Of a stretch of DNA of 64,000 nucleotides, positions 19,210 through 21,595 are shown piece after piece. The DNA is from Escherichia coli. GTDB taxonomy: Bacteria > Pseudomonadota > Gammaproteobacteria > Enterobacterales > Enterobacteriaceae. The notes below the pieces were generated by a model. It was not told where the DNA came from, made no database searches, and was given only the letters and a program-made list of their open reading frames with translations. Position numbers and translations under genes: made by a program. Position 1 is the stretch's first letter. Each line of letters starts with the position of its first letter. The stretch lies in the NCBI RefSeq assembly GCF_041248615.1, contig NZ_CP158426.1. The stretch is one strand, 5' to 3'.

Positions 19210-20760
19210 ATGCCCACTTCTCATGAAAATGCACTGCAACAACGTTGCCAGCAAATTGTCACCAGCCCGGTGCTTAGCCCGGAGCAGAAGCGCCATTTTC
19301 TGGCACTGGAAGCAGAAAACAATCTGCCTTATCCGCAGCTTCCTGCCGAAGCCCGCCGCGCGCTGGATGAGGGTGTAATCTGCGATATGTTTGAAGGTCA
19401 TGCGCCGTACAAACCGCGCTATGTCTTACCCGATTACGCCCGTTTTCTGGCGAACGGTTCCGAATGGCTGGAGCTGGAAGGCGCGAAAGATCTTGATGAT
19501 GCACTCTCTCTGCTGACCATTCTTTACCACCACGTACCGTCGGTCACATCGATGCCGGTCTACCTGGGGCAACTGGATGCGTTGTTGCAACCGTATGTTA
19601 GAATTCTAACACAGGACGAGATCGATATTCGAATAAAACGTTTCTGGCGTTACCTCGACAGAACCCTGCCAGACGCCTTTATGCACGCCAATATCGGCCC
19701 GTCTGATTCGCCCATTACCCGCGCGATCTTACGTGCAGACGCAGAGTTGAAGCAGGTTTCACCGAACCTGACCTTTATCTACGATCCTGAAATCACCCCT
19801 GATGACCTACTGCTGGAAGTGGCGAAGAACATCTGTGAATGTAGCAAACCGCACATCGCCAACGGTCCGGTGCATGATAAAATTTTCACAAAAGGGGGCT
19901 ACGGGATTGTGAGCTGTTACAACTCACTGCCGCTGGCGGGTGGTGGCAGCACGCTGGTACGCCTTAACCTGAAAGCCATTGCCGAGCGCAGCGAATCGCT
20001 GGATGACTTCTTTACGCGCACTCTACCGCACTACTGCCAGCAGCAGATCGCCATCATCGATGCGCGGTGTGAATTCCTCTATCAACAATCACACTTCTTT
20101 GAGAATAGCTTCCTAGTGAAAGAAGGGCTGATTAACCCTGAACGTTTTGTGCCAATGTTTGGCATGTATGGGCTGGCGGAAGCGGTTAACTTGCTGTGTG
20201 AGAAAGAAGGGATTGCCGCGCGCTACGGTAAAGAAGCCGCCGCAAATGAAGTGGGTTATCGCATCAGCGCGCAACTGGCGGAGTTTGTCGCCAATACCCC
20301 CGTGAAATATGGCTGGCAAAAACACGCCATGTTACACGCACAGTCGGGGATCAGTTCCGATATCGGCACCACGCCGGGCGCGCGTTTGCCGTATGGCGAT
20401 GAGCCAGATCCGATCACCCATCTGCAAACTGTCGCCCCGCATCATGCTTATTATTATTCCGGCATCAGCGACATTCTGACGCTCGACGAAACCATCAAAC
20501 GTAATCCGCAGGCGCTGGTACAGCTTTGCCTCGGTGCCTTTAAAGCCGGAATGCGTGAATTTACCGCCAATGTCAGCGGTAACGATCTGGTTCGCGTTAC
20601 CGGTTATATGGTGCGTTTGTCGGATTTAGAAAAATATCGCGCCGAAGGTTCACGCACCAACACCACCTGGCTGGGCGAAGAGGCCGCACGCAACACTCGT
20701 ATTCTGGAACGCCAGCCGCGCGTGATAAGCCATGAACAGCAGATGCGCTTTAGTCAGTAA
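19210..20760 (+). CDS. yjjI: YjjI, glycine-radical-enzyme-like protein (DUF3029)
   Basis: 516 aa [30 protein letters not shown]...; matches YjjI as recalled. Confidence 0.9.
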
Positions 20761-21595
20761 GATTATCCCCTTCTCCTGCGTTGACGGGCCAGGCAGTCGT
20801 CTGGCTCTGTTTTTGCAGGGCTGCAATCTGCGCTGCAAAAACTGTCACAATCCGTGGACGATGGGACGTTGCAATGATTGCGGGGAGTGCGTGCCACAGT
20901 GTCCGCATCAGGCGTTGCAGATTGTTGACGGCAAAGTGGTGTGGAACGCTGTGGTCTGCGAGCAGTGTGATACCTGCCTGAAGATGTGTCCGCAACATGC
21001 CACGCCAATGGCGCAATCCATGAGCGTGGATGAGGTGCTTAGCCATATCCACAAAGCGGTGCTGTTTATCGAAGGGATAACGGTAAGCGGCGGCGAAGCC
21101 ACGACCCAACTGCCGTTTGTAGTGGCGCTGTTTACTGCTATCAAAAACGATCCGCAACTGCGCCACCTCACCTGCCTGGTGGACAGTAACGGTATGTTGA
21201 GCGAAACCGGCTGGGAAAAATTGCTCCCGGTGTGCGACGGCGCAATGCTCGATCTCAAAGCGTGGGGGAGCGAATGTCATCAGCGATTAACCGGACGCGA
21301 TAATCAGCAGATTAAGCGCAGCATCTGTTTGCTGGCAGAGCGCGGTAAGCTGGCGGAACTGCGTTTGCTGGTAATCCCTGGCCAGGTGGATTATTTGCAA
21401 CACATCGAAGAACTGGCGGCGTTTATCAAGGGACTTGGCGATGTTCCGGTACGCCTGAACGCGTTTCATGCCCACGGCGTGTATGGCGAGGCGCAAAGCT
21501 GGGCGAGCGCCACGCCGGAAGACGTTGAGTCGTTGGCTGATGCGTTAAAGGTGCGCGGGGTGAGCCGGTTGATATTCCCGGCGCTGTATTTGTGA
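20732..21595 (+). CDS. yjjW: YjjW, glycyl-radical enzyme activating (radical SAM) protein
   Basis: 287 aa; Cys-rich clusters ([13 protein letters not shown] and ferredoxin-like CPHQALQ...[12 protein letters not shown]); overlaps yjjI 3' end. Confidence 0.9.

Follow-up and report, generated by a model that had tools for sequence, protein, structure and literature searches.

YjjI-YjjW of Escherichia coli: A Small Glycyl Radical Enzyme System with a Recurrent Link to Nucleoside Genes

Introduction

The described glycyl radical enzymes (GREs) closest to the system treated here are the class III ribonucleotide reductase (RNR) NrdD and the pyruvate formate-lyase (PFL)-like enzymes, which include PFL, glycerol and propanediol dehydratases, CutC, HypD, and IslA. 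A C-terminal four-cysteine Zn site is a defining feature of NrdD, a C-x-E motif is the signature of GRE 1,2-eliminases, and an N-terminal DGPGSR-like motif is typical of GRE activases. Escherichia coli also encodes the GREs PflD and YbiW, both with adjacent activases. The yjjI-yjjW gene pair, studied here in a 64,000-nucleotide (nt) stretch of E. coli DNA (the window; RefSeq contig NZ_CP158426.1 of assembly GCF_041248615.1), is a glycyl radical system of the best-studied bacterium, and the reaction it catalyzes is a long-standing question.

YjjI and YjjW very likely form a genuine GRE and activase system. Taken as a whole, the evidence is best explained if YjjI is a radical enzyme, induced by FNR, that serves anaerobic nucleoside catabolism and probably acts on the pentose part, a reading held with slightly better than even confidence. 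The structural placement of YjjI beside class III RNR, the broad gene-context argument for anaerobic nucleoside catabolism, and the deo regulatory DNA embedded in yjjI are new in the present analysis.

Identity and Annotation of the Gene Pair

19210..20760, plus strand: yjjI coding sequence, YjjI-family GRE of 516 amino acids (open reading frame (ORF) and RefSeq coding sequence at identical coordinates)
20732..21595, plus strand: yjjW coding sequence, radical S-adenosylmethionine (SAM) activase of 287 amino acids (TIGR04041, PF04055, and Fer4 families; RefSeq coding sequence identical)
20732..20760, plus strand: 29-nt overlap between the end of yjjI and the start of yjjW, read from the sequence

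YjjI matches PF11230 (YjjI-like, the former DUF3029) at E = 2e-220, with 732 bits against a cut-off of 23, and it matches TIGR04040 over its full length with 788.4 bits against a curated cut-off of 498.3. YjjW scores 398 bits against TIGR04041 (cut-off 250). A sequence-only reading of this DNA had described a DUF3029 protein and a radical-SAM activase with a ferredoxin-like cysteine region, encoded with overlapping ends by a conserved chromosomal pair beside the deo operon, and each element of that description holds. Besides the family matches and the overlap, YjjW contains C31, C35, and C38 and two CX2CX2CX3C motifs, RefSeq places deoC divergently upstream of yjjI, and megablast with the ~3 kb region 18900-21900 at ≥80% coverage finds the pair in 5422 of 5426 complete E. 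coli genomes.

The pair is an already catalogued and annotated family, not a new entity. RefSeq names its products "YjjI family glycine radical enzyme" and "YjjW family glycine radical enzyme activase", the E. coli K-12 RefSeq name for YjjI is "DUF3029 domain-containing protein", and NCBIfam (June 2026) types both TIGR04040 and TIGR04041 as "hypoth_equivalog". The same reading had called the reaction unassigned, and no published biochemical assignment was found in the open-access literature, NCBIfam, RefSeq names, or PDB sequences. The full-text search for yjjI and yjjW, which covered open-access papers, returned only regulon lists, omics tables, genome and annotation notes, and one computational "nitrogen metabolism" prediction. 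A single-sequence search of PDB chains with YjjI gave no match beyond noise, a literature search for ties between GREs and nucleosides, deoxyribose, ribose phosphate, or ADP-ribosylglycohydrolase found nothing relevant, and YjjI is not treated in an RNR phylogeny preprint.

Conservation and Fold of YjjI

19912..19923, plus strand: Cys-loop motif S235-C236-Y237-N238, with C236 the presumed thiyl-radical residue
20593..20607, plus strand: glycyl radical motif R462-V-T-G465-Y466, a regular-expression match of the R-V-x-G-[FWY] type

A search of 1.84 billion cluster representatives (50% identity) returned only 542 representatives related to YjjI at E ≤ 1e-3, many of them fragments. Conservation was read from an alignment of 24 diverse family members with 33-90% identity, in which G83, G120, D123, H159, L174, T196, P214, C236, E305, G418, R462, and G465 are invariant. 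Residues conserved in at least 90% of these sequences include E62, R70, Y71, N186, K213, N218, S235, Y237, N238, R251, H376, Q378, D384, R392, Y466, and R501. C236 is the sole conserved cysteine. The conserved residues are strongly polar and charged, which suggests a hydrophilic and probably anionic substrate. Viral contigs scanned for relatives yielded none, and the family is not phage-borne.

An AlphaFold2 model built from the family alignment (predicted local distance difference test score 90.9, predicted template modeling (TM) score 0.91) has the ten-stranded alpha/beta barrel and the Gly and Cys finger loops that were taken as the test of a GRE fold. A GrcA-like spare-part role is ruled out for YjjI, which is a full barrel. 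When the model is compared with the PDB by Foldseek, the top 21 matches are all NrdD (E 2e-17 to 5e-15, TM 0.64-0.74) and PFL-like enzymes rank after them. In shape, the model appears slightly closer to NrdD than to the PFL clade. Alignment of YjjI with E. coli NrdD by hhalign gives 89% probability over 328 columns. The family profile searched against the PDB gives PFL-type matches at the Cys loop only (E ~4e-4) and one NrdD (E 4e-3), marginal matches that were used only for Cys-loop alignment; there, S235-C236 of YjjI stands opposite C418-C419 of PFL.

YjjI differs from NrdD in several defining features. It is ~200 residues shorter, shares 12-18% identity, and lacks both the Met/Cys formate-oxidizing pair and the allosteric N-terminal ATP-cone/specificity-site region. 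The second active-site cysteine of NrdD, on the opposite face of the site (C175 in E. coli), has no counterpart, since hhalign sets R70-Y71 opposite F-N-C175 with a gap at the cysteine. Nor does YjjI have the four-Cys Zn ribbon beside the Gly loop: the last cysteine of the E. coli protein is C440, and none lies around or after G465. The YjjI segment LVRLNL aligns with NrdD VISLNLPRIA, which would place YjjI N254 at the equivalent of T4 NrdD N311; N254 occurs in the majority of the 24 sequences, though some have Arg or Lys there. E. coli YjjI matches none of PF13597, the ATP-cone model, and the NrdD NCBIfam models at E ≤ 0.01, while some distant family members do match NRDD (P0097 and P0131 with no grade marked, P0137 weakly, and P0126 faintly). 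YjjI also differs from NrdD in its gene context, which is catabolic.

The PFL-like enzymes are 250-350 residues longer than YjjI, and E. coli YjjI does not match their model PF02901. In place of the Cys-Cys dyad of pyruvate and ketoacid formate-lyases, YjjI has Ser-Cys, and where the 1,2-eliminases carry Glu two residues after the cysteine, YjjI has C236-Y237-N238; an invariant glutamate, E305, lies elsewhere in the sequence. Among the fold matches are the structures of PflD (8yjo) and YbiW (8yjn), deposited as "Probable dehydratase PflD" and "Probable dehydratase YbiW". These two are canonical PFL-like enzymes of 765-810 amino acids, whereas YjjI belongs to a separate small family. Because the signature of each known subclass is lacking, YjjI should be filed as a genuine but minimal GRE (516 amino acids) in a clade of its own, outside NrdD, PFL, and the eliminases.

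Gene Neighborhoods of YjjI

In Enterobacteriaceae, Hafnia, and Edwardsiella, deoCABD lies divergent from yjjI-yjjW. The Gilliamella genes form a single-strand run, deoB-deoD-nupG-add-cpdB-cdd-deoA-yjjI-yjjW, and in Haemophilus influenzae yjjI, a radical-SAM gene, and nupC occur together (PMC5609409). From such context, Hu et al. 2009 assigned YjjI to a module for deoxyribonucleoside degradation (PMC2672614), and no biochemical follow-up to this module was found in the open-access literature.

As an independent test of the nucleoside link, metagenome contigs were scanned with an alignment that excluded gammaproteobacterial motif variants. Within 76 metagenome loci with a recognizable YjjI, the most frequent neighbors are the Bmp nucleoside-binding protein (27 loci) and its ATP-binding cassette (ABC) permeases (26), followed by DeoD (15), Cdd (9), nucleoside hydrolase (8), PfkB kinase (8), DeoC (7), and DeoB (5); genes for uridine kinase and adenosine deaminase are found as well. 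At locus L170, the genes DeoD-Bmp-YjjI-YjjW-ATPase-permease-permease-DeoC-Add-DeoB follow one another on one strand with gaps of -8 to 102 bp. Locus L122 reads YjjI-YjjW-Rih-Bmp-ATPase-permease-permease-PfkB-DeoD behind a divergent Crp/Fnr-family regulator. Loci L096 and L100 carry, on one strand, a nucleoside hydrolase (Rih), a DeoD-type phosphorylase, a sulfatase, YjjI, YjjW, a major facilitator superfamily transporter, Bmp-ABC, a second DeoD, and Cdd, and in L100 a TRZ amidohydrolase is also part of the run, listed before Rih. A nucleoside hydrolase and an ADP-ribosylglycohydrolase adjoin the pair in L094 and L095, and adenosine-deaminase and PfkB genes lie nearby in L093.

The distant members, with and without nucleoside neighbors, have 33-45% identity. 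Nucleoside-linked members are mutually 30-39% identical, as distant as any pair in the family, and share the same invariant residues. The link between YjjI and nucleoside genes is frequent and recurrent, not universal.

Several lineages show further neighbors. In one low-GC (guanine plus cytosine) lineage, the gene just before YjjI in the nucleoside operon, on the same strand, encodes a cytoplasmic Cys-type sulfatase of 511 amino acids that carries the formylglycine motif C-S-P-A-R and lacks a signal peptide (L096:3806-5341, L100:8399-9934, and L101:6843-8378). In Shewanella, an aldehyde dehydrogenase of 506-526 amino acids lies immediately upstream of yjjI on the same strand (L043, L050, L051, L053, L059, L061, L065, and L074), a hint at an aldehyde in the pathway. 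A contig with eIF-1A, NMD3, RIO1, and RadA (L098/L099, the P0126 locus) encodes a homologue of YjjI with 40% identity, together with its activase. Because this contig carries archaeal informational genes, the family extends to Archaea.

Anaerobic Control and the Embedded deo Regulatory DNA

19136..19149, plus strand: FNR-like site CGCATcaggATCAA, with one perfect half-site, centered ~-41.5 from the transcription start predicted near 19183
19171..19176, plus strand: candidate -10 hexamer TACAAT of the yjjI promoter, proposed from sequence

Within CGCATcaggATCAA, the half-site ATCAA occupies 19145-19149, and TACAAT follows 21 nt downstream, a spacing that would give the yjjI promoter the geometry of a class II FNR promoter. 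In an alignment of 10 enterobacterial genera, GGATCAAA is kept in nine, and TACAAT or TACACT stands at a fixed spacing in most, while the surrounding sequence drifts. The assignment of the promoter rests on this cross-genus footprint because the FNR consensus is not enriched across the whole window (30 matches against 25.7 expected). Published work reports an FNR chromatin immunoprecipitation (ChIP) peak just upstream of yjjI together with FNR-dependent anaerobic activation (PMC3688515), and the peak can be tentatively assigned to the CGCATcaggATCAA site. yjjI has been classed as FNR-activated (PMC2634741), and anaerobic induction in Yersinia intermedia is 4.3-fold for yjjI and 2.1-fold for yjjW (PMC3792023).

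18173..18952, minus strand: deoC, first gene of the divergent deoCABD operon (RefSeq annotation)
18997..19012, no strand assigned: DeoR operator O2 TGTTAGTATTCTAACA at deoP2, in the yjjI-deoC intergenic region
19030..19045, minus strand: CRP site TGTGATGTATATCGAA of deoP2, read from the sequence
19596..19611, no strand assigned: DeoR operator O1 TGTTAGAATTCTAACA, a perfect palindrome inside yjjI, spanning codons 129 (third base only) to 134 (Y129-T134)
19875..19890, no strand assigned: candidate third DeoR operator OE TGATAAAATTTTCACA, with 4 mismatches, inside yjjI, +279 bp from O1

Upstream of yjjI and divergent from it, RefSeq annotates deoC-deoA-deoB-deoD. The window holds two DeoR operator matches against 0.12 expected. 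O1 is encoded in yjjI by the rare codons AGA and CTA, and it occupies the same yjjI position in all 29 loci with a match, namely 28 enterobacterial genome loci (Hafnia and Edwardsiella included) and the matching E. coli record. The candidate OE lies exactly 279 bp beyond O1, the place of the third operator in the deo literature, and locus L010 has an OE-like copy with 3 mismatches at the same offset. O1 and O2 are exactly 599 bp apart; the published deoP1/deoP2 separation is likewise 599 bp, and DeoR locks both by looping (PMC3334521). A CRP site identical to TGTGATGTATATCGAA is listed for yjjI/deoC in CRP ChIP-seq (PMC4287617).

On these coordinates, the yjjI promoter and the first ~680 nt of the gene would lie inside the DeoR repression loop. 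This position leads one to expect that DeoR, and perhaps also CytR-CRP, would control yjjI together with deo. Transcripts from deoP1 would be antisense to the promoter and 5′ end of yjjI.

A sigma-70 scan of the region gave only one intragenic promoter-like site, and nothing there made a convincing terminator; shuffled sequences yield more. The sole sigma-70-like match (19856-19883, plus strand) reads TCGCCA-16-TAAAAT, has a TG upstream, and falls within the yjjI coding sequence, where it shares bases with the candidate OE. Given the higher numbers in shuffles, chance is its probable origin.

Two kinds of lineage-specific dedicated regulator accompany the pair elsewhere. A gene for a Crp/Fnr-family protein is divergent upstream in 17 metagenome loci (L122:9135-9836 and 16 others), and a LysR-type gene is convergent downstream in ~32 loci of Vibrionaceae, Shewanella, and Aeromonas (L037, L042-L073, and others).

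YjjW and Its Probable Coupling to yjjI

20783..20800, plus strand: N-terminal D18-G-P-G-S-R23 motif, read from the translation
20822..20845, plus strand: radical-SAM cluster motif C31-x3-C35-x2-C38 (PF04055 and PF13353)
20870..20989, plus strand: ferredoxin-like insert with two CX2CX2CX3C motifs, C47-C57 and C76-C86 (Fer4_9, Fer4_7, and Fer4 at residues 42-90)

YjjW matches PF04055 with 52 bits. It is an activase of the PFL-activating enzyme type with a ferredoxin insert and differs from the NrdG type, as TIGR02491 gives 48.6 bits against a cut-off of 126; the generic TIGR02494 gives 134.9, under its cut-off of 174. The two ferredoxin-type motifs presumably bind two auxiliary [4Fe-4S] clusters. 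Such clusters are not universal in YjjW-type activases, because short activases (247-250 amino acids) without the insert are paired with YjjI in actinobacterial, archaeal, and one other lineage (L082:9557-10309, L089:2785-3528, and L098:11621-12364).

Translational coupling of yjjI and yjjW is likely, given the 29-nt overlap and the lack of a Shine-Dalgarno sequence ahead of the ATG of yjjW. The two genes overlap or nearly abut, by 1-26 nt, at most of the other loci examined, and L087 has a gap of 41 nt. yjjW directly follows yjjI in 81 of 81 species-level genome loci, and an activase lies directly downstream of YjjI in at least 64 of 76 metagenome loci. The apparent case of Gilliamella without an activase is ruled out, as tblastn finds yjjW in all 13 loci where ORF calling had none.

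Downstream of yjjW, RefSeq annotates yjjV, yjjU, ytjA, osmY, and prfC on the opposite strand. Two to three copies of a ~100-bp direct repeat with palindromes resembling repetitive extragenic palindromic elements (GCCGGATGCGGCGTGAACGCCTTATCCGGCCTAC) occupy 21596-21811, the whole interval from yjjW to the convergent yjjV. The repeat resembles elements of the bacterial interspersed mosaic type and may act as a terminator or mRNA stabilizer.

Proposed Function and Mechanism

YjjW and YjjI very probably form a self-contained two-protein glycyl radical system. By analogy with the superfamily mechanism, reduced YjjW would cleave SAM and abstract a hydrogen from Gly465, the radical would pass from Gly465 to Cys236 during turnover, and Cys236 would abstract a hydrogen atom from a small polar substrate inside the barrel. 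The neighborhoods in many unrelated lineages suggest that YjjI works in anaerobic nucleoside catabolism, a role that we consider rather likely.

The most speculative steps concern the substrate and its fate. The substrate would most likely be a pentose moiety, either ribose phosphate or a nucleoside, and the reaction may be a radical 1,2-elimination that is redox-neutral and resembles the first RNR half-reaction, with a keto-deoxy product that would feed aldolase or aldehyde metabolism. The case for this chemistry is that the closest structures bind ribose and begin catalysis at C3′-H, that YjjI has no second cysteine or other evident reductant site, that invariant E305 could act as a base, and that the presumed pocket residues are polar and charged. 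In addition, L122-type operons center on a ribonucleoside hydrolase and a ribokinase-like kinase, and DeoC or an aldehyde dehydrogenase often accompanies YjjI. A redox-neutral 1,2-elimination on the pentose part is nonetheless a tentative proposal and, as a particular chemistry, rather unlikely. Its narrower version, in which YjjI is a catabolic "half-RNR" that abstracts the 3-hydrogen and expels the 2-substituent of ribose phosphate or a ribonucleoside without reduction, is quite unlikely; in one chemically attractive form of it, ribose 5-phosphate could yield a 2-deoxy-3-keto-pentose 5-phosphate, which could split into acetaldehyde and 3-phosphoglycerate.

Alternative Explanations

Several points weigh against a nucleoside role. 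At least two nucleoside genes occur in only 4 of 16 informative 70%-identity metagenome clusters. Vibrionaceae, Aeromonas, and most Shewanella have no nucleoside genes nearby, only the LysR regulator (convergent), joined in Shewanella by the aldehyde dehydrogenase, and the actinobacterial, archaeal, and several other loci have none either. Neighbors were called by simple ORF calling and BLAST labels, and the metagenome loci were picked by similarity to one clade rather than at random. The E. coli pair is divergent from deo instead of sharing an operon with it, an adjacency that could be inherited synteny, and both chemistry and substrate are inferred. By expression, yjjI falls in with genes of nitrate and nitrite respiration: one bicluster conserved between E. 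coli and Salmonella contains yjjI and narGHJI along with FNR/NarL-like motifs (PMC3228777), and a second study finds nap, nar, and nir genes co-expressed with yjjI (PMC6643234). That YjjI itself serves nitrate/nitrite respiration or nitrogen assimilation is nevertheless very improbable, as shared FNR control explains the co-expression and a nitrate, nitrite, or nitrogen-assimilation gene is adjacent in 0 of ~180 loci examined. An appreciable though minor probability attaches to the view that the substrate of YjjI is some common metabolite with no relation to nucleosides, with the neighborhoods reflecting shared anaerobic regulation, inherited synteny, or chance. The activase is the only universally conserved partner and most sampled lineages lack nearby nucleoside genes, a pattern typical of central-metabolite enzymes such as PFL and NrdD. 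Chance, however, hardly accounts for the way the pair is tightly inserted, on the same strand, into nucleoside ABC transporter loci between the genes for the binding protein and the ATPase, or for a nucleoside link in at least six differently arranged contexts whose members are 30-45% identical; by a rough estimate, a random gene would have some nucleoside gene among its near neighbors in ~3% of cases.

Other alternatives keep the nucleoside connection and change the substrate or the purpose. YjjI could act on the released nucleobase or a base derivative instead of the sugar. L170-like operons already hold every classical sugar-side step (DeoD, DeoB, DeoC, Add, and Cdd), which leaves the bases without an obvious anaerobic fate, and a TRZ/ATZ amidohydrolase lies beside the pair in L100 and L080. 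This is improbable, as the nearest structural relatives bind ribose, the polar and charged conserved residues (R70, D123, H159, K213, R251, E305, H376, and R392) fit a sugar phosphate, and we know of no GRE that acts on a purine or pyrimidine ring. The same NrdD likeness could mean that YjjI is a cryptic alternative RNR making deoxynucleotides, and NrdD entries are indeed the best structural matches, an NrdD-like "LNL" segment follows the YjjI Cys loop, and nucleoside genes surround the pair. YjjI has neither the second active-site cysteine (R70-Y71 at F-N-C175) nor the Zn-ribbon cysteines (none occurs after residue 440), it lacks the ATP-cone or specificity-site region, the E. coli protein matches no NrdD model, and its gene context is catabolic. 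In addition, Garriga and colleagues are said to have found in 1996 that nrdD is essential for strict anaerobic growth of E. coli, where yjjI is present. Taken together, these points make an RNR function extremely improbable.

Biological Significance

The YjjI-YjjW system is near-universal in E. coli and ranges over Gammaproteobacteria, low-GC gut and bioreactor metagenome lineages, Actinomycetota, and an archaeal contig. An unrecognized oxygen-sensitive step would, if the nucleoside link is true, be added to anaerobic nucleoside catabolism, with a bearing on colonization of the gut, where nucleosides are abundant. With the context evidence, the candidates for the substrate shrink from "anything" to about a dozen compounds that can be purchased, and the substrate question is directly testable for that reason.

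The placement of YjjI, if true, would also provide a structural and functional bridge between ribonucleotide reductases and PFL-like radical enzymes. Should the half-RNR version hold, anaerobes would have a redox-neutral way out of ribonucleosides that is independent of transketolase, a counterpart to the role of DeoC for deoxyribonucleosides, and YjjI would be a living intermediate between the GRE eliminases and class III RNR.

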